Positions 2,851-18,821 of a DNA stretch of 18,831 nucleotides are shown one piece after another (position 1 is the stretch's first letter; every line of letters begins with the position of its first letter). The notes under the pieces were generated by a model that was given only the letters and a program-made list of their open reading frames with translations, was not told the origin of the DNA and made no database searches. Both the position numbers and the translations under genes were made by a program. Origin of the DNA: Bdellovibrionota bacterium (GTDB taxonomy: Bacteria; Bdellovibrionota_C; UBA2361; OMII01); assembly GCA_044345405.1 (NCBI GenBank), contig JBIJBE010000057.1:1-18831 (forward strand). The letters run 5' to 3'.

Positions 2851-4533
2851 ATGAGTGAATCAACCAGCACAAAGCGAACAGTTCAGTCAGTAGTATCCGA
2901 CGCCGCGAAGATCCGAGAGCGGCAACAGGCCGTGGTTACGGAACGAACGAAGGCGTTCGCTCAGACGAACGTATTCGCCTCGATCATGCTCAATCAAGAA
3001 CTCTCTCCGGAAGGGAAGCGAGACGCGTTTGTGAAGGAGCTCGCGTTCTCAAAGGAGAGCACTAAGGAGCAGAATCGGGCCAAGCTTGAGGCCTTCGGCG
3101 CCTTCAAGGAGTATCTCCAAGAGCAGCGTAAGGTTCTTAATCGCGAGGGTATCAAACTTCAGGACACAGAGGCCTTTGCTGAGCTTCAGTCCGTTGTGGA
3201 TGATATGACCCGAGCCAGCGTTGAGTTTCAAGACAAAGCGAAGCCTCTTATCGATGTCCTCACCGCGGTCTTTGAGATTCGAAAGAACGACAAGATTCCG
3301 GACGTGTACAAAGAGATTCAGAAAGATAAAGAGTGGGCAGAGGAGCAGAAGAAACTCCTGGAAACGTTCGAACAACGACTCGCTGAGTCTGTTTCCCGCG
3401 GTGAGGCTCTTGAGCGAGAGAAGGCGAGGCTCTCGGCGGAGAAGTCCTTTTTCGGACTGGGTCCGATCAAGAAATCCGCGCTCGCTCGGATCGGAGAGAT
3501 CGACTCGATTGATAAAGTGAGAGCGTCGGATGAGATTAATGACGCCCTCAACAAGGTAGAGGCCCAACGGGCGACCATAGCCGCGGGCCGAGATCCCGAG
3601 AACCCAGAGCTATCCGATCAGAAGCGGGTGTTGCGGGAGTTCCTTGATCTAACTAAGGAGGAGAATAGGGACCGTCAAAAGGCTCTCATCGACGCCGCTG
3701 TGAACTACGTTGATACATCCGATACACGCCTCAAGGGCGTGCTTGGTACGCTTGAGCGATTGGGTAAGCACGCCGAGGTCCTCTCGGATACGAACGGCAT
3801 CCTTAAAAACATGCACCTCATCATGGACGAGTCGTTGAAAGCGGTTTCTCAGGGGAATGAGGAGGTGAAGAAGGGACTGGAATCGGCTCCCGGGGAGGAG
3901 TCCTCTATCGCTCGAATGACCCGTGAGGATAAGCTTCAAGACCTCAACGAGTTTATTAGTCGATCCGATGACCACGCGATAGACGTGGCGAACTCCATCG
4001 GCGGTCTTACGAAGCACGCCGTTCAGATCCAGGCTTACAAGGATACGATAAGGAACGAGAGCGGGAGTACCAAGCGACTCCACCTTGAGGGCGTCTCACA
4101 GATGGGAGAACAGCTCATGTCCGTGGTGAGCGCGATATCAGCGGCGGCTACAAGCGAGTCCCGCTCAATCGCGGCCAACAATTTCGCCCGCATGGCGGCG
4201 CAGAATCAAACGATCATCTCGCAAGAGGTCGTGCGTAACGCCACGACGATCGACCTTGAGGCGCAGCAGATCTCTCGCCTCGTTGGAGAGCTTCAGGATT
4301 ACGGCGATGTTCTCAAAGCTTCGAGCGATATCGCGAACGCTGGATACACTCGCATGCGTGATACGATCGGCGCGATTCGAAAGGTCTCTGGCGCGGTTCA
4401 GGGCGCTATCAACGACCTCGTGGATGAGCGAGCTGAGGCGAATATGGCGAGTGGTGAGGCGGATAATTCATCGGAAAAGCCGGGTGGGGGCCAAGGATTC
4501 GCCAATCCGTTTGATAAACTTGGAAATTCATAG
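2851..4533 (+). CDS. Large all-alpha coiled-coil protein of unknown function (560 aa); first gene of a putative 3-gene operon
   Basis: Long ORF with a purine-rich RBS (AGGGGGAAGG) directly before ATG 2851. It is E/K/A/S/L-rich, Cys-free and Pro-poor, with heptad-like helices and no signal peptide or clear TM helix. Confidence 0.85.
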   Translation: MSESTSTKRTVQSVVSDAAKIRERQQAVVTERTKAFAQTNVFASIMLNQELSPEGKRDAFVKELAFSKESTKEQNRAKLEAFGAFKEYLQEQRKVLNREGIKLQDTEAFAELQSVVDDMTRASVEFQDKAKPLIDVLTAVFEIRKNDKIPDVYKEIQKDKEWAEEQKKLLETFEQRLAESVSRGEALEREKARLSAEKSFFGLGPIKKSALARIGEIDSIDKVRASDEINDALNKVEAQRATIAAGRDPENPELSDQKRVLREFLDLTKEENRDRQKALIDAAVNYVDTSDTRLKGVLGTLERLGKHAEVLSDTNGILKNMHLIMDESLKAVSQGNEEVKKGLESAPGEESSIARMTREDKLQDLNEFISRSDDHAIDVANSIGGLTKHAVQIQAYKDTIRNESGSTKRLHLEGVSQMGEQLMSVVSAISAAATSESRSIAANNFARMAAQNQTIISQEVVRNATTIDLEAQQISRLVGELQDYGDVLKASSDIANAGYTRMRDTIGAIRKVSGAVQGAINDLVDERAEANMASGEADNSSEKPGGGQGFANPFDKLGNS

Positions 4534-4557
4534 TGCGTCGCTGCCGGGGAGGTATCT

Positions 4558-6732
4558 ATGGGAGATTCAGCGTCTGGGGAAACGTTGACTCGAGGCTCCG
4601 ACGTTCTCGCTCGGAGACCGAACTTTAAGCTCGTCGGGCGTGACACCGAGCTCGCCGAGTTGTCTACCGCGCTCATGAAGCTTCATCGTCGAAACCTTGT
4701 CGTAACGGGACGAGGAGGGGTTGGCGTGAGCGCCATCGTTCTCGGATTGCAGGCGAGTAAGCGCGATCTCACCACACCGGTTGATATCGTTGGAAAGCGA
4801 TTCTTCTGGCTGAACACCGATCTTCTCTTCGAGTCGGGGAACACCGCGGCGATAAATGAGGCGTTCAGAAAGGCGCGTAATACTTTGAGCGCCTCAAACT
4901 CAGCTGTGCTGGTTGTTGAGGACGCCGCGGACTTCATCAAGTTCGCCACAATGACGGGATGTAGCAATCTCATTAACGGTTTGATGGGAGACCTAAAAGC
5001 GGGGCGCTATCAAGCTATCTTTGAGACGAGCGATGAGGGACTGGCTGAGCTTCTTAAATGTGACGGGGACCTCTTGGAGAATTGCACCCTCTACGAGGTA
5101 AAGGAGCCTGCTCCACTGAATCTCCGATTAATCGCCGAGCAGGTGCGTGGAGAGCTTGAAGCTCACCATGGCGTTGGGATATCGCCCAAAGCTCTTGAGG
5201 GGGCGGTAGCATTGACTGAAAAATACAAATTGACCGAGTTGAGGGCGCAGCCGGACGCGGCGATAACGCTCCTCGATCTCGCCATGACGCACTTCTGTCG
5301 CCAGGCGCACCTCGCACCTGTTCACATCGAGGAGCTGAAACGAAAGCTCGCGTCGACCCCTCCCGCCGCCCCCGAACGTCGTGATATCGAAACTCGTATT
5401 CAGACGGCCCAAGCGGAGTGGAACGAGCGACAACGGCAGGTTCGAGCGCTCTACCAGGAGATGAGCGACGGAGAGGAGCAGATACGGGTACTTGAGGATG
5501 AGGTTCAGACCCTAAAAAACGCCCATCAGCGGCGTGTTTCGGAGCTGCAGAGCTCGGCGAGCGCGAGTAGTGTGATGAGTGGTCACGGTGATCCGATGGG
5601 GATCTACAAGGACTCCGACACCGCCGCCGTAACTGAGGTTCGGCAACGGCTCGATATGTTGCGTAAGCTGGTGTCGCGGGCGAGCGAGGCATACACAAAA
5701 AAGGTGGCCGAGGTCTACGCCGGGTTGTCGATTGGGGAGGAGGATGTACTGCGCTCGTTTAGCGCGCTATCCGGGATCCCCGTAGACACGTTGACGGAGA
5801 ACGAGCGAGAGCGATTGCGTAATCTGGAACACGTTTTAAGCGCGCGGGTAGTGGGACAGACGGAGCCGACCACTGAAGTTGCGCAGTCGGTTAAACGAGC
5901 TCGATTGGGCTTGAAGCTTCCGAATAAGCCCTCCGGGACCTTTATGTTCCTTGGACCTTCGGGAGTGGGAAAGACCGAACTCGCGAAGGCGCTCTCCGAA
6001 GCGCTCTCGGTTCCCCTGCTGCGGTTCGATATGTCGGAGTATATGGAGAAGCACGCGGTCGCGAAGCTCATAGGAGCGCCTCCAGGATATGAAGGGTATG
6101 AGCATGGTGGGATCCTCACCAATCTCGCGCGTCGTAACCCTTACAGTGTCGTGCTCTTTGACGAGATTGAGAAGGCTCACCCCGATGTCTTCAATCTGAT
6201 GCTTCAGCTCCTCGATGATGCCCGCCTTACCGACAGCCGAGGACTGACCGCGTCGTTTAAGGATACGATCGTGATTATGACTACGAACATCGGAACGCCT
6301 CACTTCCTCGATGAGACGATGCCGTTTGAGGAGGCCAAGAAACTCGCCCTCACGGACCTCCGTTCTCACTATCGTCCAGAGTTCCTGGGACGGTTCGGGG
6401 GAAATATCTACGCATTCCAACGGCTCGGTGTTGAGGTGCTTTCGGCGATCGCGATCAAGGAATTGGGTCGTATCAACGCGCTCATCGCCGATCAGAAGAT
6501 TCACCTCGTCATGCCCCAGGCAGCGATGCGGGAAATGGTGCAAGCCGTGTATGTTCCGCGGGAGGGGGCTCGAAGCATCTTGGGATACATGGACCGACAT
6601 ATTACATCGAGTATCGCGGACCTCGTATTGAATGAGCGTGTGAGAGAGGGGGAGATAGAGGTCTCCTTTGAGGGATCCACAAAAACTATCGTGTTGAAGC
6701 CCGTGGCTCCCGCTGTGGCTCAAGCGGTGTAG
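4558..6732 (+). CDS. ClpA/ClpB (Hsp100)-family AAA+ protein lacking the N-domain, with degenerate NBD1, long coiled-coil middle domain and intact NBD2
   Basis: LVGRDTE start of NBD1, LEAHHGVGI and QPDAAITLLDLA (cf. LPDKAIDLIDEA). NBD2 has RVVGQ, FMFLGPSGVGKTELAKAL, RFDMSEYMEKHAVAKLIGAPPGYEG, VVLFDEIEKAHPDVFN, IMTTN, RPEFLGR and GAR. RBS GGAGGT at 4548-4553. Confidence 0.92.
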   Translation: MGDSASGETLTRGSDVLARRPNFKLVGRDTELAELSTALMKLHRRNLVVTGRGGVGVSAIVLGLQASKRDLTTPVDIVGKRFFWLNTDLLFESGNTAAINEAFRKARNTLSASNSAVLVVEDAADFIKFATMTGCSNLINGLMGDLKAGRYQAIFETSDEGLAELLKCDGDLLENCTLYEVKEPAPLNLRLIAEQVRGELEAHHGVGISPKALEGAVALTEKYKLTELRAQPDAAITLLDLAMTHFCRQAHLAPVHIEELKRKLASTPPAAPERRDIETRIQTAQAEWNERQRQVRALYQEMSDGEEQIRVLEDEVQTLKNAHQRRVSELQSSASASSVMSGHGDPMGIYKDSDTAAVTEVRQRLDMLRKLVSRASEAYTKKVAEVYAGLSIGEEDVLRSFSALSGIPVDTLTENERERLRNLEHVLSARVVGQTEPTTEVAQSVKRARLGLKLPNKPSGTFMFLGPSGVGKTELAKALSEALSVPLLRFDMSEYMEKHAVAKLIGAPPGYEGYEHGGILTNLARRNPYSVVLFDEIEKAHPDVFNLMLQLLDDARLTDSRGLTASFKDTIVIMTTNIGTPHFLDETMPFEEAKKLALTDLRSHYRPEFLGRFGGNIYAFQRLGVEVLSAIAIKELGRINALIADQKIHLVMPQAAMREMVQAVYVPREGARSILGYMDRHITSSIADLVLNERVREGEIEVSFEGSTKTIVLKPVAPAVAQAV

Positions 6733-6747
6733 CAACCAGGAGAGATA

Positions 6748-7578
6748 ATGAGCGATCCGGCCGGAAGGGGAGATGGAGGAAAGGACGAGCTCGACTCGCT
6801 TATCGCCCGCGCCCGGCGTATGTCGAAATCGACATCTCCATCGGTGACGCCATCCGATGACCAGGGTACGATCGCCGAATCGATTCGAGAATTGAACGAG
6901 AATGTAACCTTCCTTCGAAGAGCGGTTACCGCGACTCGGACGGTTGTGGGGGGCTTGCTTTCCACCGTTGTTTCTCCCGTGTGGCGAGTGCTTCGCCCCC
7001 CGCTCTCCTGGTTGTGGAGGATCTACCTCTCGGTGTGGAATCGATTCGCCTACACCGTCGATCGAACGACGAAGGAGCGAAGGTTGTCGCGCGTTCGGTC
7101 TAGTATCGTCGTTGTGTTTACCGTGCTTGTTCTCTCTACCTTCACCGATACATGGTTGGGAAGCACGGTCCGCTTCTTTACCGTTGAGCCGATCGTTGAT
7201 GGGATGCTGATAGGCCTATCGAAACGCACAGAGGTGTTCTACCTAACGCAATCCGATGAGATAGATCCCGAGAACAATATTCACTCAGTTCGCGGTTGTC
7301 GTAAGAGGGGAGAGTGCGCTGAGGTCGACGCCGCGTACTTCCGGGTGCAGCCCCGACTCTCGCACGATATCTGGAAGCTATGGATGTACGGTAATCCTGT
7401 GTATGTCCCTGACCACATCGTGGCACCGATCGCTCCGGGTCTTAACGAGTGTCACGTTACCTACTATGGGTACCGAATGACCTCCTCGTGGATCGCTCGG
7501 GTGCTTCGGTCCTTGCAGTTTTATCCGACGATGCTTGAGGCGAAGTGTACGTATCTAGGGAGCGATAATCGCAGCTGA
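6748..7578 (+). CDS. Membrane-anchored hypothetical protein (276 aa) with a C-terminal 4-Cys extracytoplasmic-type domain
   Basis: AGGAG RBS, 15 nt after the ATPase stop. N-terminal polar/helical part, Trp/Arg-rich amphipathic stretch, hydrophobic helix SIVVVFTVLVLSTF, then a beta-rich domain holding all four Cys. Confidence 0.85.
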   Translation: MSDPAGRGDGGKDELDSLIARARRMSKSTSPSVTPSDDQGTIAESIRELNENVTFLRRAVTATRTVVGGLLSTVVSPVWRVLRPPLSWLWRIYLSVWNRFAYTVDRTTKERRLSRVRSSIVVVFTVLVLSTFTDTWLGSTVRFFTVEPIVDGMLIGLSKRTEVFYLTQSDEIDPENNIHSVRGCRKRGECAEVDAAYFRVQPRLSHDIWKLWMYGNPVYVPDHIVAPIAPGLNECHVTYYGYRMTSSWIARVLRSLQFYPTMLEAKCTYLGSDNRS

Positions 7579-7746: not shown

Positions 7747-8493
7747 ATGCTAGAGCTTTTTTCTCCGGAGAACTTGATCGCCCTATTGACCCTAACGTCA
7801 TTAGAGATCGTTCTTGGAATAGATAATATCGTTTTTATCGCGATTATCGCCGGTCGTTTAAAGGCTGAACAGCGCCACTCAGCTCGTCTGATCGGACTTG
7901 GGCTCGCGGTTATCACGCGGTTGATGCTCCTCTTCACCCTTTCCTACATGGCATCGCTTACCAGTCCGGTTGTGACGATGCCGTTTATGGGTCGGGAGCT
8001 GAGTGGTCGTGATATTATCCTCCTCGTCGGAGGTCTCTTCCTTATTTACAAAGCGACGAAAGAGATTCGAGAGAAGACGGTTCACGAGGAGAGTGAGCTT
8101 CGTGAATTTCAAGGCGGTAAGATGCCGACGATGCGGGGTGTGATAACCCAAATCATTCTCATCGATATCGTGTTCTCGCTCGATTCCGTGATCACGGCGG
8201 TGGGAATGACAAACAACCTTCCGGTGATGGCGACCGCTGTTGTTTTGGCTGTTATCGTCATGTTGCTCTTCTCAGGATTTATCGTTCGTTTCATCGAGGC
8301 GAATCCTACGATTAAGATACTCGCGCTCTCGTTCCTCCTCATGATCGGTCTCGTGCTTGTCGCCGATGGACTCGGTCACCACATCGAGAAGGGATACATC
8401 TACTTCGCGATGGCGTTCTCGCTTGGGGTGGAGATGCTTAATTTAAGGGCGGCCCGGGTGCGAGGGGTGTCGGGGGAGGGCGGTCATTCCTGA
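7747..8493 (+). CDS. TerC-family integral membrane protein (short type, no CBS domains); probable Mn2+/metal-related transporter
   Basis: Signature motifs LEIVLGIDNIVFI, GGLFLIYKAT, DIVFSLDSVITAVG and KGYIYFAMAFS. About 7 hydrophobic helices. AAGGAG RBS at 7733-7738. Confidence 0.95.
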   Translation: MLELFSPENLIALLTLTSLEIVLGIDNIVFIAIIAGRLKAEQRHSARLIGLGLAVITRLMLLFTLSYMASLTSPVVTMPFMGRELSGRDIILLVGGLFLIYKATKEIREKTVHEESELREFQGGKMPTMRGVITQIILIDIVFSLDSVITAVGMTNNLPVMATAVVLAVIVMLLFSGFIVRFIEANPTIKILALSFLLMIGLVLVADGLGHHIEKGYIYFAMAFSLGVEMLNLRAARVRGVSGEGGHS

Positions 8494-8710: not shown

Positions 8711-9700
8711 CTACAACGTCGAAGCGATAGCCGCCGCCCCATAGAGCGAGGCGTAATCATCCTTGATGATGAACACAGGGGTCGCTTCAACACGCTCCTT
8801 CTGCTTACCTTTGTTGAGGTATCCTTCAAGGAACGAGCCGTTCGTGAGGAACTCCAAGATCTTTGGTGGGATACCACCGCCTAAGAAGACACCTCCGGTC
8901 GCGAGGTAGGTGAGAACGATATTGCTACAGTGGGCGCCGAGCATGGTGCAGAACATATTGAGCGTTTTGACGCAGAGGTCTGATTTACCCGCCATCGCGA
9001 TGCCTGTGATAGTTGAAGCTGGATGCTCCTTAGCCTCGGGGGTCTTCATCTCCTCGGGCTCTTCGCCGTATCCGGAGTCTCGAAGGAAGGTGTAGATGTT
9101 GAAGATACCTGGTCCGCACAGTATCGACTCAACGCTGACGTGAGAAAGTTTCTTTTGAAGATACTTTAAGAGCTCGATCTCAAGGTCGTTGGTTGGCGCG
9201 AAGTTAGCGTGTCCACCCTCTGAGGCGAGGAGCACGCTCCACCCACCTTCTCGATGAATGAGCGAGTGTCCCAGTCCAGTTCCTGGCGCGACAACAACGC
9301 AGGAGCCCGCGCGATCATACCCCTCACCGCCGTAGAGCGTTTTGAGGCTGCTTGGACCGAAGTGCGGAATCGCCGCCGCGGTACTGACGAGATCGTTTAC
9401 GAGTTTGACTTTGGAGATATCAAGGGCGAGTCCAACCTGAACCATCGCGACCTCCCATGGGAGGTTCGTCACCTTGACCTTGCCGTTCACAACGGGACCG
9501 GGGAGTCCGAAGCAACCTGCCTCAAGATGCCCTTTGACCTTTGAACTGTGTTTGTCCATGAAGACGCCAAGGATCGCCTCAAGGCTCTTGTAATCCTTGC
9601 TCGCGTAGTCCTCAGATACCACCAGCTCGACCTTTCCAGCACGTCTCTCAAAGAGGCCGATTCGAGCCTTCGTTCCACCCACATCACCAGCGATAAGCAT
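8711..9700 (-). CDS. glk: Glucokinase (E. coli Glk-type, non-ROK)
   Basis: AGDVGGTKAR phosphate-1 motif, GPV…VTNLPW, LVND, APGTGLG, SEGGHANFAP, VSVE and GGVFLGGGIPPKI. CAGGAG RBS favours ATG at 9700 (alternative 9706) over the TTG at 9760. Confidence 0.95.
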   Translation of the reverse strand: MLIAGDVGGTKARIGLFERRAGKVELVVSEDYASKDYKSLEAILGVFMDKHSSKVKGHLEAGCFGLPGPVVNGKVKVTNLPWEVAMVQVGLALDISKVKLVNDLVSTAAAIPHFGPSSLKTLYGGEGYDRAGSCVVVAPGTGLGHSLIHREGGWSVLLASEGGHANFAPTNDLEIELLKYLQKKLSHVSVESILCGPGIFNIYTFLRDSGYGEEPEEMKTPEAKEHPASTITGIAMAGKSDLCVKTLNMFCTMLGAHCSNIVLTYLATGGVFLGGGIPPKILEFLTNGSFLEGYLNKGKQKERVEATPVFIIKDDYASLYGAAAIASTL

Positions 9701-9999
9701 GAACATCTCCTGAACAGTTAATGCATCGGCATTTCTAGCAAACAGAGCGACGTCGGCCAACTATTTCCGCCGGAAGACGTCGTTTTGTCCTATTCGGTCT
9801 ACGGACGAGATTGTCTGACGGCGAACATTGAGAAGAGGATTAGACCGGGTATGAAGGGGGCCGCGGTATGAGAGGCGCTAAAAGAGAGGACGCCCGATGC
9901 CGATAGGTTCCAGAAATATCCCGTCTTAACATGGACTTCCCGAAGTACGCTCCCTATAATCCGAACACCAGGGGCCCTGCGCCGTATATTCGTTCGCCT

Positions 10000-11391
10000 A
10001 TGAAGATCTTGATGCTCGGATGGGAATATCCCCCTCATATCGCGGGGGGACTCGGCACTGCCTGTCAGGGCCTAACGAGCGCGTTGTCCTCCCAAGGGGT
10101 CGATATTCACTTCGTCGTTCCCCAGCTCTTCGGAATGGAAGAGGCACGGCACATGGTGCTTTCTGATTCCTCTCGCGCGATTTCGCCAGGTGGCCAACAA
10201 CCGCAAGGTCCTAAGCCACCGCCCGTTCCCGTTCCCACGACCCGTATCCCGGCTTTTCTCTCCCCGTACTGGAGTCCCCGTCAGTTTACGGAGACGATGG
10301 CCGCAATCACGCACCAACAGGTTGCATCGCTCTCGCCCGCGTTGAGAAAGGATCCGACGGCGCGTGCGCTGATAGATGGAGAGGTATATGGGATCGATCT
10401 CGTCAGCGCGCTCGAACACGCGCAGCCAGACCTTCCCGAGCGGGTCGCGGGTAACGATCGCTACAGCAAAGACCTCTTCGAGGAGGTTGAGCGCTTCACG
10501 ATGCAAGTTATCTCACAGTTCGCGGGGGAGTCGTTCGATGTGATTCACGCCCACGATTGGATGACGTTTCCCGCTGGGGTCGCTCTCTCCGAGCGAACGG
10601 GCAAACCTCTTATCGTACACGTGCATAGCCTTGAGCAGGATAGAAGTGGCCTCTTCGTGCATCCTCAGATCAGTGAGATGGAGCGTTTCGGGACCCGACA
10701 CGCCGATAAGGTGATAGCGGTGAGTTACTTCACGAAACGCTCTATTGAACGTCATCACGGAATCCCCTCAAGTAAGGTACTCGTTGTTCACAACGGCGTG
10801 TATCCGCGAGAGATGGTAACTGATTATCGAGGAAAGAAGACGTGGCCTGAGCACGTGGTCGCTTTTGTCGGTCGAGTGACCTTCCAAAAGGGGCCTGAGT
10901 ACTTCGTTGAGATGGCGGCGAAAGTTATCCCCCATCTGCCGGATGTTCTTTTCGTGGTCGCTGGCCAAGGAGATATGCTGCCATTGATAATGGAGCAGGT
11001 TAAAGAGCTTGGTCTTTCAAAGAATTTCATGTTCCCGGGATTCGTGCAGGGTGAGGAGCTTGAGGAGATCTTCTCTGTCGCGGATATCTATGTCATGCCA
11101 TCCGTGTCTGAGCCGTTCGGTATCACGGCGCTTGAGGCTGTGAGCTTCGATACCCCGATTATTATCTCCAAGCAGTCCGGTGTGGCCGAGGTTATCGAGC
11201 ATGCCCTCAAGGTTGATTTTTGGGACGTGGACCGCATGGCGGATCTCATTATCAACGCGCTCGTGCATCCTGAGATGCGCCAGGATTTGGCTCGAATGGC
11301 TCGAGAGGAGATCAAAGTGCTTCATTGGGACGCGGCGGCTTTAAAGACGATAGAGGTCTACCAAGACGTGAGTCCACAAGCCTCGCTATAA
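10000..11391 (+). CDS. GT4-family (GT-B fold) glycosyltransferase, glycogen-synthase-like
   Basis: MKILMLGWEYPPHIAGGLG N-terminus, IHAHDWMT, VHVHSLE, VVHNGV, FVGRVTFQKG and PSVSEPFGITALEA (E-x7-E). Start placed at ATG 10000 by family N-terminus; the ORF extends back to 9931. Confidence 0.93.
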   Translation: MKILMLGWEYPPHIAGGLGTACQGLTSALSSQGVDIHFVVPQLFGMEEARHMVLSDSSRAISPGGQQPQGPKPPPVPVPTTRIPAFLSPYWSPRQFTETMAAITHQQVASLSPALRKDPTARALIDGEVYGIDLVSALEHAQPDLPERVAGNDRYSKDLFEEVERFTMQVISQFAGESFDVIHAHDWMTFPAGVALSERTGKPLIVHVHSLEQDRSGLFVHPQISEMERFGTRHADKVIAVSYFTKRSIERHHGIPSSKVLVVHNGVYPREMVTDYRGKKTWPEHVVAFVGRVTFQKGPEYFVEMAAKVIPHLPDVLFVVAGQGDMLPLIMEQVKELGLSKNFMFPGFVQGEELEEIFSVADIYVMPSVSEPFGITALEAVSFDTPIIISKQSGVAEVIEHALKVDFWDVDRMADLIINALVHPEMRQDLARMAREEIKVLHWDAAALKTIEVYQDVSPQASL

Positions 11392-11408
11392 GGGCAGGAA
11401 CGAGAAGT

Positions 11409-12635
11409 ATGCCGGCGGTTTGTTTCTATTTTCAGGTGCACCAACCGTATCGACTGCGGCGTTATTCCTATTTTGATGTCGAGAACGCGACCACCTACTT
11501 CGATGACACACTGAATCGCTCTATTATGGAGCGAGTCGCGAAGCGCTCTTATCTGGCGGCGAACGAGCGCCTGCTTCGCGCGATTCGCGCATGCGATGGT
11601 TCGCTCAAAGTCGCGTTCTCGATAAGCGGCACCGCGCTTGAGCAGATGCGTCTCTACGCCCCAGACGCGCTGGAGAGCTTTCGAGCGTTGGCGGCCACTG
11701 GATGTGTCGAGTTTTTGGGGGAGACCTACTATCACTCCCTCGCGTCCCTCTACGATCGTGATGAGTTCGAGGCGCAGGTGCGTTTGCACTCCGATGCCAT
11801 CGAACGGGAGTTCGGTCAGCGGCCCCGCGTATTTCGTAATACGGAGCTTATCTACAGCGATGAGATCGGGCGAGTGGTTGGAGAGCTCGGATTTCGGGGA
11901 GTTCTGGTAGAGGGAGTGAACGATATCTTGGGATGGCGTTCGCCACATTTCGCCTACCGCGTGCCCGGGGCGACAACCAAGTTGCTTCCGCGAAGTTTTA
12001 AACTCTCGGATGATATCGCGTTCCGGTTCACCCATGGCGGTGACGAACGCCTCACTCCGGAACGATACGCCGCCTCGTTGCATGACCTCACCGGTAACGC
12101 TGATTTCGTTGGGTTGTTCCTCGATTATGAGACCTTCGGTGAGCATCATGAGGGAGATACCGGGATTCTCGATTTTCTTGAGAAACTTCCGCCTCACGTT
12201 CTCAAGCACAAGGAATGGTCCTTCACTACGCCCTCTGACGCGATTCGGTATCTTCACCCTGTCTCCGAATTGTCCTTCGCCCGCGTTACATCGTGGGCTG
12301 ATACCGAGCGAGATGTGAGCGCGTGGTGTGGCAACAAGATGCAGCGGGGAGCGATTGAGACGCTCTACGAGACCAAGACCCTCTATGCGGGATGTGATAT
12401 CGCGGCGCCCGATATGGCGCTCGCTCGAGAGACGTGGCGTCGTTTGCAGACCTCCGACCACTTTTACTACATGAGCACCAAGGGAGATGGAGATGGTGTG
12501 GTGCATCGATACTTCAGCCCGTATGAGAGTCCGTACGACGCTTTCGTCGCGTACATGAACGTGCTCAAGGATATCAACGCCCGTTCGAGAAAGGTCGCTC
12601 GTGACCGGGACCGTGAAGCGGCTTCGAACGCATAG
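11409..12635 (+). CDS. Glycoside hydrolase family 57 (alpha-amylase-like)
   Basis: YFQVHQPYRL, GETYYHSL, FRNTEL (nucleophile Glu), LSDDIAFRF, DYETFGEH (acid/base Asp), SWAD and LQTSDHFYYM. Starts 17 nt after the GT4 stop. Confidence 0.95.
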   Translation: MPAVCFYFQVHQPYRLRRYSYFDVENATTYFDDTLNRSIMERVAKRSYLAANERLLRAIRACDGSLKVAFSISGTALEQMRLYAPDALESFRALAATGCVEFLGETYYHSLASLYDRDEFEAQVRLHSDAIEREFGQRPRVFRNTELIYSDEIGRVVGELGFRGVLVEGVNDILGWRSPHFAYRVPGATTKLLPRSFKLSDDIAFRFTHGGDERLTPERYAASLHDLTGNADFVGLFLDYETFGEHHEGDTGILDFLEKLPPHVLKHKEWSFTTPSDAIRYLHPVSELSFARVTSWADTERDVSAWCGNKMQRGAIETLYETKTLYAGCDIAAPDMALARETWRRLQTSDHFYYMSTKGDGDGVVHRYFSPYESPYDAFVAYMNVLKDINARSRKVARDRDREAASNA

Positions 12636-12672
12636 GACGCGCCTCGCCCGCCTCTACCGACAGGTCGAGTCT

Positions 12673-15429
12673 TTAGCTTTTCGACCGTCCGCGAGGAGAG
12701 GGCTCAGCGCGGACCTGTATCATTCGCTCGATGCACAGGGAGACGAGAGAGGTCCAGCCGGTCTGATGACTCGCTCCGATACCGGTGCCGTTGTCTCCAT
12801 GGAAGTGCTCGTAGAAGAGAATAAGATCCTTCCAGAAGGGGTTCTTAGCGTAGCGAGTATCATCTCCGTGACACGGTCTACGGCCCTGAGGATCCCGAAG
12901 GAAGAGGAGGCTGAGGCGACGTGAAAGTTCGTCGGCGACCTGCTTGAGGTTCATGAAGGTGCCACTTCCGGTTGGACACTCAATTTTGAAGGAGTCCCCG
13001 TAGAAGGTGTAGTAGCGGTCGAGCGCCTCAATTACGAGGAAGTTAATCGGGAACCATACAGGTCCGCGCCAATTCGAATTGCCGCCGAAAAAGTCGGTGT
13101 TGGAATCTCCAGGGCAGTAGTCGATTCCGTAATCCCGATTTTCAAGGGTGAGTCGATACGGGAACTCCGCGTGGATCTTGGAGAGAGATCTCATGCCGTA
13201 GGGCGAGAGGAACTCCCGCTCATCGAGGATGTAGCGAAGCATGCGTGTCAGACGCTCGGCTGATGGGATCGCGAGAAGCTTCAACCCGTCTGAGGATTGC
13301 TCAATATCGCTGACCGCTTCCTTCGGACCGGTCGCCGTATACGCGATCTGTTTGGCGAGGGCGCTCTGATTGGCGACGAACCATTCGAACCGCTTCTTGA
13401 AACCTGGAAGCTTATCGATGGTTGTATTCTGGAGCACCTCAACGGCGAGGAGGGGAATAACGCCGACGAGCGACCGTACCCGCAGGGGGATGTGCGCTCC
13501 ATCGATCGAGAGCTCATCGTAGTAAAAGCCATCGAGTTGATCCCACAGTCCGGTACCACCGAAATGATTGATAGCGGAGGCGATAGAGATGAAGTGCTCA
13601 AAGAACTTCGAGGCGAGGTCCTCGTACTCCTCGTCGTGAGCGGCGAGCTCGAGAGCCATCGTTAACATCGTGCCGCAATAGAAGGCCATCCACGCGGTGG
13701 CGTCGGCCTGTTGCAGCGTCCCTCCCTTGGGTAACGGCGCGCTTCGGTCAAATACCCCGATATTATCGAGACCAAGGAATCCACCGGAGAAGAGGTTCTT
13801 CCCTTGAGCGTCTTTACGATTCACCCACCAGGTAAAGTTAATCAGAAGCTTGGCGAATACACGCTTGAGGAAGTTGCGATCCGCTTGTCCAGACTCGACG
13901 CCCATCTGATAGACACGCCAGCACGCCCACGCGTGCACGGGGGGGTTCACGTTCGAGAATTCGAACTCATACGCCGGTATCTGACCGTTCGGGTGCATGT
14001 ACCACTCGCGGAGCATAAGGATGAGTTGTTGCTTGGCGAACGCTTGGTCGATGCGAGCGAACGTGACCATGTGGAACGCGAGGTCCCACACCGCGTACCA
14101 CGGATACTCCCACTTATCAGGTACAGAGATGATATCGCGATTGTAGAGGTGGCTCCACTCGTTGTTCTTCTGAGATTTGCGAGAGTCCGATGGAGTGGGT
14201 TGCGTTGGGTCTCCCTCGATCCACTCCTTCACCGAGTAGTAGTAGAACTGCTTCGTCCACAAAAGCCCCGCGTATGATTGCCGCATGACGAGTCGCTCCT
14301 CAAGAGAGGCGTCCGCGGGGATGAGAGATTGGTAGAAGTCGTCACATTCCGCCTTTCTGCGATCGAAGATCTCATCAAAGTCATCACCAAAGGTCTCCTT
14401 TTGGGGGGCGAACGATGAGGTGAGTCTCAGTTTGAGCTCAACCTGTCCGTGCGCGGGGACGTTGGTCTGGTAGATGAACGCGGCCTTGGTGCCGACCATC
14501 TCCGGATTCACGGCATCGGTCTCGCCATCGATAATATAGCGATGAAACGCGTCCTTTACGTACGGCGTTTCGTTGTCACGCCCGAAGAGTCGTTGGAGGT
14601 TGGTCTCGTTGTCGGTAAACACCGGCGTTATCTCTTTCGGTTCAAGTGATGGATCAAGCAGGACAACGAAGGGATCGAGTTGAGGATGCACGAGAAGGAG
14701 TCGATCCTTGCTGAGCATCGAGATGCGGGGCTTAATCGTGTAACCCTCTCCCGAGCGTCCCCATGCCCACGTGTTTCGAAACCAGATGTGGGGAAGCAGA
14801 TAGAGTGGGGCCGCCTTCGCGTGTCGATTATGGGCGGTGATCTTGACCAGGATATCGTTGGGGCCCGCTTTCGCGTACTCGACGAAGATATCGAAGTACT
14901 CGTTGGTATCAAAGATGCCGGTGTCGGTGAGCTCATACTCGCGCTCAAGACGTCCCCGTCGACGATTTTCATCAACAAGCGCCGCGTAGGGGAACTCTTT
15001 CTGAGGATACTTGTAGAGCGCCTTCATGTAGGAATGAGTCGGCGTTGAGTCGAGGTAGTAGTAGCACTCCTTCACATCCTCGCCGTGATTTCCCTCGGGG
15101 CCACTTAGTCCGAAGAGCCGCTCCTTGAGGATCGAATCCTTCCCGTTCCACAGCGCGAGGGAGAAGCAGATCCGACATTGACGATCCGTTATGCCGAGGA
15201 GACCATCCTCTCCCCACCGGTACGTTCTGCTGCGCGCCTGATCGTGCGTGAAGTACGACCACACCGAGCCGTCCGCGGAGTAATCCTCGCGTACTGTGCC
15301 CCACTGTCGCTCGGGTAGATACGGTCCCCACCGTTTCCAATTTTTGACGCGACGCTCGTCCTCCGAGAGGCGATCTCGCTCAGCGTTCGGGTTCGGTGAT
15401 GGTGTGATCTTTTTACGGGCCATGCGCAT
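12673..15429 (-). CDS. GH63-like glucosidase (MGH1-like / mannosyl-oligosaccharide glucosidase family, (alpha/alpha)6 barrel)
   Basis: WKRWGPYLPERQWGTVREDYS, GNHGEDVKE, PDKWEYPWYAVWDLAFH, GFLGLDNIG, GGNSNWRGPVW and FYEHFHGDNGTGIGASHQTGWT. The start is ATG 15429 or 15423. Confidence 0.92.
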   Translation of the reverse strand: MRMARKKITPSPNPNAERDRLSEDERRVKNWKRWGPYLPERQWGTVREDYSADGSVWSYFTHDQARSRTYRWGEDGLLGITDRQCRICFSLALWNGKDSILKERLFGLSGPEGNHGEDVKECYYYLDSTPTHSYMKALYKYPQKEFPYAALVDENRRRGRLEREYELTDTGIFDTNEYFDIFVEYAKAGPNDILVKITAHNRHAKAAPLYLLPHIWFRNTWAWGRSGEGYTIKPRISMLSKDRLLLVHPQLDPFVVLLDPSLEPKEITPVFTDNETNLQRLFGRDNETPYVKDAFHRYIIDGETDAVNPEMVGTKAAFIYQTNVPAHGQVELKLRLTSSFAPQKETFGDDFDEIFDRRKAECDDFYQSLIPADASLEERLVMRQSYAGLLWTKQFYYYSVKEWIEGDPTQPTPSDSRKSQKNNEWSHLYNRDIISVPDKWEYPWYAVWDLAFHMVTFARIDQAFAKQQLILMLREWYMHPNGQIPAYEFEFSNVNPPVHAWACWRVYQMGVESGQADRNFLKRVFAKLLINFTWWVNRKDAQGKNLFSGGFLGLDNIGVFDRSAPLPKGGTLQQADATAWMAFYCGTMLTMALELAAHDEEYEDLASKFFEHFISIASAINHFGGTGLWDQLDGFYYDELSIDGAHIPLRVRSLVGVIPLLAVEVLQNTTIDKLPGFKKRFEWFVANQSALAKQIAYTATGPKEAVSDIEQSSDGLKLLAIPSAERLTRMLRYILDEREFLSPYGMRSLSKIHAEFPYRLTLENRDYGIDYCPGDSNTDFFGGNSNWRGPVWFPINFLVIEALDRYYTFYGDSFKIECPTGSGTFMNLKQVADELSRRLSLLFLRDPQGRRPCHGDDTRYAKNPFWKDLILFYEHFHGDNGTGIGASHQTGWTSLVSLCIERMIQVRAEPSPRGRSKS

Positions 15430-15676
15430 GAAATTATTACATTTGTTAGATGAGATGAGACCCGAGAACAATGCGTAAGACCGTCGTATCTTGAAAGATT
15501 TCTGAGGGGGTGTGAAAAGCTCAGGAGTCGAGATGTGTGGTCTGGGGACGAGTAAGAGGTCGATTGTGCGTTTAGGTAGTTGATATTACAGAACTTATCT
15601 CGGCTGAAATAATAGGCGACACTGTTCGAATTTCATACCATATCTCATCAAGAGTTTTAAAAAGGCTGGATAAGCT

Positions 15677-16099
15677 ATGTCTCGAACACTACTTTCTGCT
15701 CTCTTTTGCACTGCTGTTCTATCCTCAGGGTGTGGATACCATGCCGCGCCACTCGCAATTGGAAGCGTTGGTGGAGCCGCCGTAGGCGCGGGAACGGGCG
15801 CCATCATCGGCAGCGTTATCTCTGGAGGAGATGTCGCGGCGAGCGCCTTGTTGGGCGGCGCTATCGGGTTGCCTGTCGGATTAGCCGCGGGAATGATCTA
15901 CGACTACTACAGCGAGGATACTATCCGCGAGATTAAGATCGAGGATATTAAGAATAATCAGCGGGAGATCCTCGCTCGGCAGCGTGAGATTGACGCGTTG
16001 CGAGAGGAGATTAAGAGCGATATCCCTGATGGTAATCCTCCTTCAGATCGCCAGGAATATCGATATATGGGTCCCTCGCTCGGAAATCCCTATCGGTAA
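15677..16099 (+). CDS. Glycine-zipper lipoprotein with C-terminal coiled coil
   Basis: Signal peptide ending LSSG-C, GxxxG repeats (GSVGGAAVGAGTGAIIG…LLGGAIGLPVGLAAG), then the heptad stretch IKNNQREILARQREIDALREEIK. Confidence 0.85.
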   Translation: MSRTLLSALFCTAVLSSGCGYHAAPLAIGSVGGAAVGAGTGAIIGSVISGGDVAASALLGGAIGLPVGLAAGMIYDYYSEDTIREIKIEDIKNNQREILARQREIDALREEIKSDIPDGNPPSDRQEYRYMGPSLGNPYR

Positions 16100-16134: not shown

Positions 16135-16533
16135 TTACGGAGTGACTCTCAGGATGGACTCCAGCTTCTTTTGCAGCGCCTCCGCCGAGAACGGTTTAAT
16201 CATGTAGTGCGTTACTCCCGCATGGGCGGCCTCGATTACGTTTGAACGCTCAGATTTAGCGGTTATCATCAAGAAGGGGACCTGTTTTAATTGAGGATCC
16301 TCTTTGAGCGCTGAGAGAAATTCAAGTCCGGTCATGTTCGGCATCGACCAATCTGAGATTATCAAATTACATGGTTCCGTCTTGAGTTTGAGGAGCGCGT
16401 CCTGACCTCCTCGTGCCTCAACGATCCGGTCGTATCCCAGCAGGTGAAGGGTGTGCTTGAGGATCGTTCGCATGCCGGCGAAGTCGTCCACGATCATGAT
16501 TCGAATGTCTTTGGATTTTTCCTGTCCTTCCAT
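16135..16533 (-). CDS. cheY: CheY-like single-domain response regulator (132 aa)
   Basis: IMIVDDF, phosphoacceptor ISDWSMPNMTG, PFLMITA, AGVTHYMIKPF and LQKKLESI. GGGAGG RBS before ATG 16533, so the 181-aa ORF start is over-extended. Confidence 0.88.
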   Translation of the reverse strand: MEGQEKSKDIRIMIVDDFAGMRTILKHTLHLLGYDRIVEARGGQDALLKLKTEPCNLIISDWSMPNMTGLEFLSALKEDPQLKQVPFLMITAKSERSNVIEAAHAGVTHYMIKPFSAEALQKKLESILRVTP

Positions 16534-16706
16534 GTCCGCCTCCCGGTGCGCACGCAGCTGCCCCTTGCTTTGTCGGTCGGCTCGTTGCGAGGACATCTTA
16601 ATGGAAGAGGGCTTAATCACCAGGAAAGCGTGGCAGCGATGAGGCCATTGAACGCAACATGCTGAAATCAGGTTGCACATTTTCTGCTATCTCTCTAGTT
16701 CTCTAA

Positions 16707-16790: not shown

Positions 16791-18821
16791 ATGAAGTGTT
16801 TCTCTCATCATCACCGTTCAGCGATCCTTGTCGCCATGCTCTCTCTCGGGTCGTTCTCCGCGTACGCCGAGGACACGGCACATCGTCTCGACGAGATCAT
16901 CGTTGAATCGACAGGCCTCGGGCAGACCCTTACGGATCAGGCTCAGCCCGTCACCGTCCTGTCTGGTGATGACCTCGACATGAAGGTGAATTCCTCTCTG
17001 GGAGATACGTTGGGATCGGAGGCCGGTATCTCGTCAAGCTCCTTTGGTCCTGGGGCTGGACGACCGGTCATTCGAGGTCTCGATGGTGGTCGCATTCGCG
17101 TTCTCGAAAACGGCGTGGGATCGAACGACCTCTCGGCGAGCAGTCCGGACCATGCCGTCACCATCGATTCGTCGTTGGTGGACAAAATTGAGGTTGTGCG
17201 GGGTCCCGCATCGCTCCTCTACGGTACAAGCGCTGTCGGAGGTATCGTGAATACCTTTGATAACCGTATTCCGGAATACCTTCCCGACGCCCCGGCGGAA
17301 GGAACCGCGGAGACGCGAGGAGATAGCGCGAGTAAAACCCGAACGGGACTTGTAAGTGTCACTGCCCCCGTTGGTAATGTCGCGCTTCACGTCGACGCGT
17401 TGGCCTCAAAGTCAGATGACTATCACATCCCTGGCTACGCTCGAACGGGCGAACTACGAGCAACGACCCCAATCGATTATCCCGAACCACAGGGCACCCT
17501 CTCATGGAGTGATACACAGACCGATGTCCTAACCGGAGGAGGTTCTTATATCTTCGATAAAGGATACGTCGGCGCTTCATACAACGACTACAAAACGATC
17601 TATGGTGTCCCGAACGGAGAGCCCGACATCTCCATCAACGCCCACCGTCGTCGCGCTGATTTCCGGGCGGGAGTTCGTGATACGGGTGAGTTTATCGAGT
17701 CGGGCACAGTTCGAGCGGGATACGTTGATTACCAGCATACCGAGTTCGAGGGGGATGAGGCGGCAACGAATTTCATGAATCATGGTATCGACTCGCGTGT
17801 TGACCTAAAGCACAAAGCGGTGAATGGCGTGCGAGGCACATGGGGCGCTCAATTTCAGGGCAACGACGTCGACGCGGAGGGTCTTGAGGCCTATCAGCCC
17901 CCCTCGACTACGGATGTGTATTCCTTGTTCGCGCTCGAGGAGCTCTCTGCGACTGAAGACCTCACCCTGCAAGCGGGCCTTCGATATGATTGGAATGAGG
18001 TCGAGACGGATGGTTTCGATGAAATCACGTCGCAAGACGATCAGACCCGTCGCTACGACCTTTTTAGTCAGTCTGTAGGAGCTACCTTTCAAGTATCCGA
18101 CGAGTACGCATTGGCGTGGTCGTCCGCGTACACTGAGCGCGCGCCCAACGCCCAAGAGCTTTTCGCGGATGGGCCTCACGTTGCTACGGGGGCGTACGAG
18201 ATCGGTGATGACTCTCTCAATACCGAGCAATCGCTTGGTACGGATATCGCGCTGCGAAAGACAGAGGGGACTATTCGAGGTTCCGTTGGAGGGTTTTACA
18301 ATCGCTTTTGGAACTTTATCAACGCGAATCCTACCGGCGCGACCGAGGATGACCTTCCTGTATACCAGTTCGAGAATATACCGGCCGATTTTTGGGGGTT
18401 TGAGTCTCAAGTAGCGTACTACGCGGTTGATTCGGTGGCGAAGGAGGTCTCCTTCGACTTTCAACCGGACTACGTATGGGCTCGAAATCGAGATTCTCGA
18501 GAGTATCTACCCCGAATTCCGCCGTTGCGAATGAAATTCGGCGCGAACTACTACCACGAAGATCTCTTCCGGGTTCGACTTGAGTTACAGCAGGTGTTTG
18601 AGCAGGAAAAAGTGGCTAGCTATGAGACCACAACGGATGGTTATTCGATGCTCAATCTCTACCTGAGCAAAGATGTGAACTATCAAGGTCAAACATATGA
18701 GTTGTTCGTTCGTGGCACGAACCTTCTCAGTGAGAAAGTGCGTAATCATGTGTCATATATCAAGGACGTCGCGCCACTCCCCGGAGCCTCCGCGATGGCT
18801 GGATTTCGAGTGCGGTTTTAA
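16791..18821 (+). CDS. TonB-dependent outer-membrane receptor, ZnuD-like (putative zinc/metal uptake)
   Basis: Signal peptide (AYA-E), TonB box LDEIIVES, plug motifs SSFGPGAGRPVIRGL, DHAV and IEVVRGPASLLYG, barrel motif ELFADGPHVATGAYEIG, NLL…RNHVS, C-terminal Phe (RVRF). Confidence 0.92.
   Translation: MKCFSHHHRSAILVAMLSLGSFSAYAEDTAHRLDEIIVESTGLGQTLTDQAQPVTVLSGDDLDMKVNSSLGDTLGSEAGISSSSFGPGAGRPVIRGLDGGRIRVLENGVGSNDLSASSPDHAVTIDSSLVDKIEVVRGPASLLYGTSAVGGIVNTFDNRIPEYLPDAPAEGTAETRGDSASKTRTGLVSVTAPVGNVALHVDALASKSDDYHIPGYARTGELRATTPIDYPEPQGTLSWSDTQTDVLTGGGSYIFDKGYVGASYNDYKTIYGVPNGEPDISINAHRRRADFRAGVRDTGEFIESGTVRAGYVDYQHTEFEGDEAATNFMNHGIDSRVDLKHKAVNGVRGTWGAQFQGNDVDAEGLEAYQPPSTTDVYSLFALEELSATEDLTLQAGLRYDWNEVETDGFDEITSQDDQTRRYDLFSQSVGATFQVSDEYALAWSSAYTERAPNAQELFADGPHVATGAYEIGDDSLNTEQSLGTDIALRKTEGTIRGSVGGFYNRFWNFINANPTGATEDDLPVYQFENIPADFWGFESQVAYYAVDSVAKEVSFDFQPDYVWARNRDSREYLPRIPPLRMKFGANYYHEDLFRVRLELQQVFEQEKVASYETTTDGYSMLNLYLSKDVNYQGQTYELFVRGTNLLSEKVRNHVSYIKDVAPLPGASAMAGFRVRF

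Follow-up and report, generated by a model that had tools for sequence, protein, structure and literature searches.

What is the first ATPase ring of a Clp protein for, and how would a Clp hexamer assemble without it? In descriptions of class I Hsp100/Clp proteins, which carry two tandem AAA+ domains, both ATPase rings are functional; ClpB mutated in the laboratory in the first nucleotide-binding domain (NBD1) assembles or works poorly. A locus from a Bdellovibrionota bacterium opens both questions to test. The stretch analysed (the window) spans 18,831 nucleotides (nt), positions 1 to 18,831 of contig JBIJBE010000057.1 in assembly GCA_044345405.1. The original prediction for positions 4558-6732 was an Hsp100 with an inactivated first ring acting as a scaffold, without an N-domain or a ClpP-docking loop, and driven by a single motor. 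This gene, named gene B here, was found to represent a natural and deep family in which NBD1 catalysis is abolished and the domain conserved, the Walker A lysine being retained in some members. Moreover, two unstudied genes (A and C) accompany it in bacteria and in a giant phage, so that a dedicated machine seems likelier than a general heat-shock chaperone. The features of gene B are the following.

4558..6732, + strand: gene B, Hsp100/Clp ATPase without N-domain, with a pseudo-ATPase NBD1, a middle coiled coil and an intact second domain (NBD2)
4546..4552, + strand: ribosome-binding site of B (GGGGAGG), which fixes the start and excludes an N-domain
4708..4731, + strand: remnant of the NBD1 Walker A, GRGGVGVS, with Val57 in place of Lys
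4831..4848, + strand: NBD1 pore-1 loop remnant ESGNTA
4906..4923, + strand: NBD1 Walker B remnant VLVVED
5062..5085, + strand: NBD1 arginine-finger remnant DGDLLENC
5242..5253, + strand: NBD1 lid family signature RAQP (canonical RFLPDK)
5323..5727, + strand: middle coiled-coil domain of about 135 amino acids (aa), ClpB-type, variable
5728..6657, + strand: NBD2, catalytically complete (K472, D535/E536, N577, R612, R672), without IGF loop
6085-6096, + strand: NBD2 pore loop GYEG

Gene B is a single uninterrupted frame of 724 aa. Its domain matches (AAA_lid_9, AAA_2 and ClpB_D2-small) place it among the class I Hsp100/Clp proteins, and residues 24-699 form one continuous alignment with Thermus thermophilus ClpB (1qvr; E 1.6e-99). 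When aligned to 1qvr ClpB and Staphylococcus aureus ClpC, every motif of B stands in register with its canonical counterpart. The motifs on which the original prediction was built were all located, namely GRGGVGVS (residues 51-58), ESGNTA (92), VLVVED (117) and DGDLLENC (169) in NBD1, and GPSGVGKT (466), GYEG (510), LFDE (533), TTN (575), GRF (611) and GAR (670) in NBD2; Val57 is indeed encoded by GTG at 4726-4728. The predicted lack of an N-domain was upheld as well. Gene A ends with its stop at 4533, 24 nt before the start of B, and the ribosome-binding site lies in between; therefore there is no room for an N-domain, and one overlooked upstream is ruled out. Clp_N had no match in B; the stretch ahead of NBD1 measures about 25 aa, compared with about 180 in most of the control proteins defined below. 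The best NCBIfam match was ClpB, at 396.5 bits against a cut-off of 1232, a shortfall that is partly an effect of length. TssH scored 319 bits against a cut-off of 885, and B falls far under the curated NCBIfam cut-offs of ClpB, ClpA, TssH, ClpG and ClpK.

Whether the loss of NBD1 motifs is peculiar to this gene was answered by comparison with relatives. A search with residues 1-400 of B (8000 candidates scored) gave 85 proteins, 47 of them at E ≤1e-59 and, after a gap, 38 at E ≥1e-10. These 38, mostly canonical Clp proteins, served as controls, and the close set consists of B and 46 matches, the identical P0002 being left out. A profile search of representatives at 50% identity then listed the best 150 matches, 149 of which were new. 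The distant core comprises 41 of them that scored >200 bits on an NBD1-only profile, together with P0243 and P0247, which were added by hand. Seven proteins with short N-termini that scored 105-164 bits on that profile are referred to as sisters, and the remaining matches were not tallied. All motif tallies count only the rows in which the region is filled.

The catalytic DE of Walker B is absent from the whole family (0/45 close, 0/43 core and 0/7 sister rows) and present in 38/38 controls. The same holds for the arginine pair RR (0/46, 0/43 and 0/7, against 38/38 controls) and for a pore-1 motif of the KYR type (0/45, 0/43 and 0/7, against 35/38). The Walker A lysine is retained in 0/45 close and 0/43 core rows, so that all 88 lack it; it is kept by all seven sisters and by 37/38 controls. 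At this position nearly all core rows have a hydrophobic or small residue (I, V, L, C, M), and one has Arg. The sensor-1 region, which the original prediction had passed over, is also altered, from GATT to FET/E. That Arg in place of Lys is one of three observations that count against a clean sweep; the others are a Glu in the catalytic column of Walker B in one core row, and a single Arg that stands one position upstream of the finger in 18 of 96 family rows. The shared losses reach down to about 30% NBD1 identity. Judged from these residues, NBD1 would be unable to hydrolyse ATP or to grip substrate in the canonical way, yet it is conserved. In fact, across the close and distant core rows together, R28 of the GR motif is kept in 84/85 filled rows, G51 in 86/87, G54 in 88/88, G56 in 87/88 and Ser/Thr58 in 86/88, and the acidic Walker B positions are kept too. 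R229 is present in 47/47 close members. The residues peculiar to the family include K68, W84, Q152 and the Q231-P232 pair of the lid signature (Q231 in 47/47 and 42/43 rows, P232 invariant), with GR27-28 also kept.

The degeneration of NBD1 was thus borne out as a family-wide trait in the 95-96 proteins scored, common to the relatives of B, while each motif is kept by 35-38 of the 38 controls. The prediction had argued from four independent losses to a selected pseudo-ATPase scaffold ring, and had named canonical motifs in close orthologues as its refutation, an outcome that did not arise. A selected pseudo-ATPase stands; the four losses are inherited family traits rather than separate events in B, and NBD1 may be more than a scaffold, with non-catalytic ligand binding possible, given the retained GR motif, P-loop glycines, Ser/Thr and lid motif and the seven sisters with Lys. 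Lineage-specific decay or sequencing error was ruled out, with a negligible residual chance, by the open frame, the equal losses in 95-96 proteins and purifying selection.

The evidence for selection comes from the B genes of the window and three metagenome-assembled genomes (MAGs). Synonymous sites are saturated (proportion of synonymous differences, pS, 0.72-0.81), and the non-synonymous proportion (pN) is 0.13-0.25 in NBD1, 0.11-0.17 in NBD2 and 0.33-0.47 in the middle domain. NBD1, with an amino-acid identity of 0.65-0.82, has a pN/pS of 0.18-0.32 against 0.16-0.24 for NBD2. The dead domain is therefore under purifying selection and constrained nearly as much as the live one. A tree of NBD2 only (96 rows, 5 having been dropped as partial) set 57 family rows apart from 39 other Clp proteins (ClpA/B/C/V) with support of 100/97, ClpV-like rows sitting in the other branch. 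Because the rows were gathered with the family profile and the tree was rooted at its midpoint, it gives a separation of the B family, short of a proven origin. The sisters (P0248, P0249, P0251, P0252, P0258, P0264 and P0269) keep Lys and are already without N-domain, DE, Arg pair and pore loop, which suggests that catalysis was lost first and the Walker A lysine later. For the loss of Lys the free tree needs 3 changes, and a single Lys-less clade was not rejected (approximately unbiased test, p-AU 0.51; 34-row subset). Most sisters have GYAG as their pore-2 loop.

What, then, does the remaining motor look like? No filled family row lacks K472, D535, E536, N577, R612 or R672, so that NBD2 is predicted to be an intact single motor, as had been proposed. 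Its pore loop had also been called intact; GYEG is non-canonical, with Glu where controls have Val or Ile. It occurs in 47/47 close rows, distant rows are mixed (E/V/D/A), and V or I is found in 37/37 filled controls. NBD2 of B is 44-46% identical to that of ClpB/Hsp104. The ClpP-docking loop is missing, as claimed: an IGF/LGF loop follows sensor-1 in 0/47 close and 1/41 distant rows. As a distinguishing trait or a novelty this absence was rejected, since it is the usual state of ClpB and 36/38 controls also lack the loop (PMC5540906). One 977 aa family member, P0236, carries a LAGLIDADG/Hom_end intein-like insert exactly at the Walker A of NBD2, the live ring.

Between the two rings lies a middle coiled coil that had not been noted before. 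It aligns to the ClpB middle domain and is the least conserved domain of B. In ClpB a tyrosine in helix 3 of this domain is needed for collaboration with DnaK, which Y503A abolishes (PMC3887210). A helix-3 motif, E-L-x-Y-G, composed from the aligned controls, was found in 0/47 close and 1/51 distant rows and in 26/38 controls. N-domain, ClpP loop and DnaK-contact motif are thus all missing from the sequence of B. With them every general substrate-entry route is lost, and two fixed partners are kept. A subgroup (P0214-P0241 and L004:5273-7258, including the phage protein described below) is set apart by a middle domain that is shorter by about 50 aa and by a total length of about 665-720 aa, and may be enriched in phages.

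The partners, which the original prediction did not include, are genes A and C on either side of B.

2851..4533, + strand: gene A, 560 aa, all-helical bundle, no predicted transmembrane segment, proposed cognate substrate or partner of B
3448..3462, + strand: FFGLG loop capping a helical hairpin of A, candidate membrane-contact loop
4426..4533, + strand: C-terminal tail of A, disordered and about 35 aa long, with a conserved (N)PF at its end; candidate grip for the ATPase pore
6748..7578, + strand: gene C, 276 aa, N-terminal helices, hydrophobic segment at about 115-140 and a C-terminal barrel resembling oligonucleotide/oligosaccharide-binding (OB) folds with four conserved Cys, proposed membrane anchor or sensor

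The order A (2851-4533), B (4558-6732), C (6748-7578), with gaps of 10-28 nt, was found in the window and at 3/3 MAG loci from a genome scan (one from Deltaproteobacteria, two from Bdellovibrionota), and A lies directly upstream of B in L001-L004. The flanks differ among all four bacterial loci. In the Agrobacterium jumbo phage Atu_ph07, A adjoins B and C follows three genes later, 1.6 kb downstream; the phage B (gp492) has NBD1 losses identical to those of the family. A is only about 27-31% identical between MAGs and phage, and by sequence A, B and C are inherited together. Indirect support for linkage comes from contig sizes, as the longest contig is identical in size to that of an A or C cluster for 26/47 B clusters (11 with both) and for 1/36 controls. 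Atu_ph07 was the sole carrier of A, C or a family-level B in the phage collection. On plasmids A had no match, and among the NBD1 matches listed (15 of 100) all were <30% identical, mostly TssH, with no family member seen. The Atlas also offers, as leads only, clusters from Pseudomonadota and viruses that look like A and C.

No mobile or defence genes were found beside the cassette at the four bacterial loci, and no type VI secretion system (T6SS) genes near it. At L002:88-4858 it lies 1.1 kb downstream of what we take, from the translation, to be an rpoB-rpoC pair, a housekeeping rather than a mobile setting. Its GC content agrees with the rest of the window; a sigma-70 promoter search found none, and an Rfam search gave no match. 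Pfam, NCBIfam, PADLOC and PHROGs offered no informative family for A or C. The module is unannotated, and B is labelled plain ClpB in databases and in the phage genome paper, of which the accessible passages treat the Atu_ph07 gene as an ordinary ClpB chaperone and are silent on the dead NBD1 and the partners (PMC6102473). Narrow multi-term queries of open-access full text found no account of the family or cassette, which is weak evidence of absence.

Gene A has 55 homologues at 27-98% identity, and its structure was predicted with a mean confidence (pLDDT) of 75.5. The FFGLG loop sits between predicted helices 149-195 and 208-245; [FL]G[LFM]G occurs in 48/49 aligned homologues, with G202 and G204 invariant. 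In the tail, pLDDT is <50 at 525-550, and PF is found among the last 14 residues of 44/49 homologues, Phe in 49/49. Over its C-terminal part A resembles, weakly, the TelA/KlaB family (PF05816), likewise long helical bundles: hhalign gave 206 collinear columns at E 0.008 and a score of 29.75 that beats 90/90 block shuffles and 2 reversals, at a probability of only 4.9%. A differs from TelA/KlaB in being about 190 aa longer and without a Pfam hit. Two further weak pointers to TelA are an Atlas cluster at 0.78 and, among fold matches, a phage TelA that ranked 12th (E 2.5e-3) amid generic coiled coils. A single TelA sequence did not match the A profile, and Foldseek found nothing in the PDB at E 0.001. 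The bundle also scored against the toxins XaxA (Z 11.0, root-mean-square deviation (rmsd) 5.9, 246 aligned) and ClyA (Z 10.6, rmsd 3.7, 207 aligned), level with the scores of unrelated bundles, and AhlC falls within the same Z range of 10-11. A hydrophobic segment of the ClyA membrane-inserting type is absent from A (19-residue hydropathy maximum 0.94). TelA has been linked to tolerance of envelope-active agents (PMC12791056). No annotated Clp neighbour was seen at 10 TelA loci, within the short flanks available. Phages often carry TelA-like genes, to judge from the 154 phage records, many of them of jumbo phages, in which TelA-family genes were matched.

Gene C has 61 homologues and a predicted structure with a pLDDT of 82.5, in which the barrel (152-273) resembles OB folds at Z of about 6. 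The strongly hydrophobic segment has a hydropathy of 1.79, and the OB-like barrel is proposed to lie outside the membrane. Its four cysteines are invariant in 55 aligned rows; the Atu_ph07 copy, which is the best viral match of C (E 9.5e-19), keeps the second pair only. In the Atlas, C is linked at a score of 0.89 to a cluster whose make-up is 53% viral. DUF1523 (PF07509) matched 0/55 members, its Atlas lead scoring just 0.78. A (2851-2910) and C (6778-6828) each start with a short helix bearing a near-invariant Ala (A18, A22), possibly a shared B-docking motif.

The architecture of B recalls several known systems. With ClpB/Hsp104 it shares the NBD1-middle domain-NBD2 layout and the absent IGF loop; it differs in having no N-domain, in the lost NBD1 Walker A/B, Arg pair and pore loop, the lost helix-3 Tyr motif, the GYEG pore, the separate branch in the NBD2 tree and the fixed partner genes. 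ClpV/TssH is a dedicated Hsp100 that recycles the T6SS sheath, and is like B an operon-encoded Hsp100 without a protease loop; it serves one cognate assembly, as is proposed for B. ClpV-like controls, however, retain the N-domain and NBD1 catalysis, and B has no T6SS genes nearby. The closest working analogue is Pex1/Pex6, which belongs to a different AAA+ clade from Clp; Vps4 and NSF are further parallels to the mechanism proposed below. Pex1/Pex6, with Pex15/PEX26, is a double ring with a dead D1 and an active D2; D1 has no aromatic pore loops, and substrates need a tail of 30-40 residues to reach D2 (PMC9265785). The tail of A has this length. The membrane anchor and tail-dependent engagement of Pex1/Pex6 (PMC9265785) parallel the roles proposed for C and for the tail of A. 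As a eukaryotic heterohexamer with N-domains it is an analogy, not a homologue. Plant SMXL/SMAX1/D53 proteins are ClpB-derived with a degenerate D1 (PMC12184505), but they keep a double Clp-N, have a degenerate D2 too and are transcriptional regulators. Skd3 (human CLPB) also works through a single NBD2-like motor and independently of Hsp70 (PMC7343390); unlike B it has ankyrin repeats in place of NBD1 and the middle domain, and keeps no dead ring. Dead first rings, degenerate ClpB-derived domains and single-motor Clp proteins are thus each already known. Atu_ph07 gp492, with equal losses and both partners, is a true member of the B family.

By analogy with Pex1/Pex6, gene B may encode a dedicated single-motor Hsp100 remodeller within a three-protein module that remodels helical A at the inner membrane; we put the probability of this reading at about 50%. 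B would still form a two-tier hexamer, in which the dead NBD1 ring would be an entry collar and partner-recognition surface, passive or gating, that replaces the N-domain and DnaK, and pulling would be left to NBD2 alone. The cognate substrate would be A, a TelA-like helical protein whose FFGLG loop would let it assemble at the inner membrane, on the cytoplasmic side. Given the lost entry routes and the Pex1/Pex6 analogue, it is proposed that A is engaged by its disordered tail, which NBD2 pulls through the NBD1 collar. C would be embedded in the membrane, its helices inside and its OB-like domain, held by disulfides, outside, and would localise or trigger the A-B pair. The overall task would be to take apart and recycle assemblies of A in a response to envelope stress or one that protects the membrane, B being a possible ATPase partner for TelA-like proteins. 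Several points weigh against this proposal. Gene linkage and analogy are what suggest a substrate role for A and an anchor role for C, the topology of C is itself a deduction, and one phage supplies the gene context of the distant B family. The likeness of A to TelA is weak: besides the low hhalign probability, a larger alignment weakens the match (E 0.065), the Atlas link to a TelA cluster scores only 0.78, and 0/49 A members reach the curated Pfam TelA cut-off. Furthermore, ClpB hexamers need NBD1 nucleotide binding and the Arg pair for stability (PMC5540906, PMC5319980, PMC4239642), so assembly of B must come about in another way; Hsp104 assembles through NBD2 (PMC5540906).

The collar itself could be something other than passive. 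NBD1 may act, without catalysis, as a sensor of nucleotide or ligand and gate NBD2, a tentative idea that is compatible with either of the biological roles considered and would account for the retained GR-motif R28, P-loop glycines, Ser/Thr58, acidic Walker B positions and R229, as well as for the seven sisters that keep Lys though without DE and RR; set against it are the residues that replace Lys in nearly all core rows, and the glycines may serve the fold alone. A different biological role, rather unlikely in our view, is a phage-conflict system in which A would be an effector, membrane-damaging or abortive, that B holds back or lets go, and C would sense an outside cue, the phage copy then serving superinfection exclusion or phage-phage competition. 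The variable flanks at the four bacterial loci, the copy in a jumbo phage, the largely viral Atlas cluster of C, the intein-like insert in one B relative and the toxin-like scores of the A bundle all point this way. Those scores, however, are equalled by unrelated helical bundles, A has no hydrophobic segment, the cassette matches the window in GC and is not flanked by defence or mobile genes at the bacterial loci, and the PADLOC matches of B (DolB, PDC-M37B) span residues 411-586 only, that is NBD2, with none for A or C. B thus lacks the full-length match and the cognate partner genes expected of those PADLOC defence ATPases.

Two further readings appear less probable still. It is doubtful that A, B and C form an undescribed ATP-driven membrane machine of bacteria and jumbo phages in which A builds a ClyA- or TelA-like lattice or channel, B threads proteins in or out with its dead ring as a docking or gating tier, and C is a periplasmic receptor. 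If true, this would make the module a bacterial counterpart of Pex1/6-Pex15 or of the Plasmodium HSP101-EXP2 translocon and would supply an energy source for the long-unexplained TelA-like proteins. It is also improbable that B works by itself as a general disaggregase and is linked to A and C only incidentally or for regulation. Such a role would agree with ClpB as the best NCBIfam match and with Skd3, which disaggregates with an NBD2-like domain alone, without Hsp70 (PMC7343390), but the linkage to A holds from MAGs to phage despite the low identity of A, the score lies far under the ClpB cut-off, no substrate-binding domain has replaced the N-domain, and Glu stands in the pore-2 loop where a hydrophobic residue is expected.

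The other genes of the window are listed below. TerC was ruled out as a part of the cassette, being absent from the flanks of L001-L004. The DsbA-like lipoprotein upstream of A is suggestive beside the cysteines of C, yet it is not conserved at the other loci.

184-1143, - strand: Ser/Thr kinase
1912-2658, + strand: DsbA/thioredoxin-like lipoprotein with a CPFC motif, upstream of A
7747-8493, + strand: membrane protein of the TerC family, 168 nt downstream of gene C
8711-15471: ordinary sugar cluster of glucokinase, GT4 glycosyltransferase, GH57 and GH63/MGH1-like glucosidase
15677-16099, + strand: glycine-zipper lipoprotein
16135-16680, - strand: CheY-like receiver
16791-18821, + strand: TonB-dependent receptor

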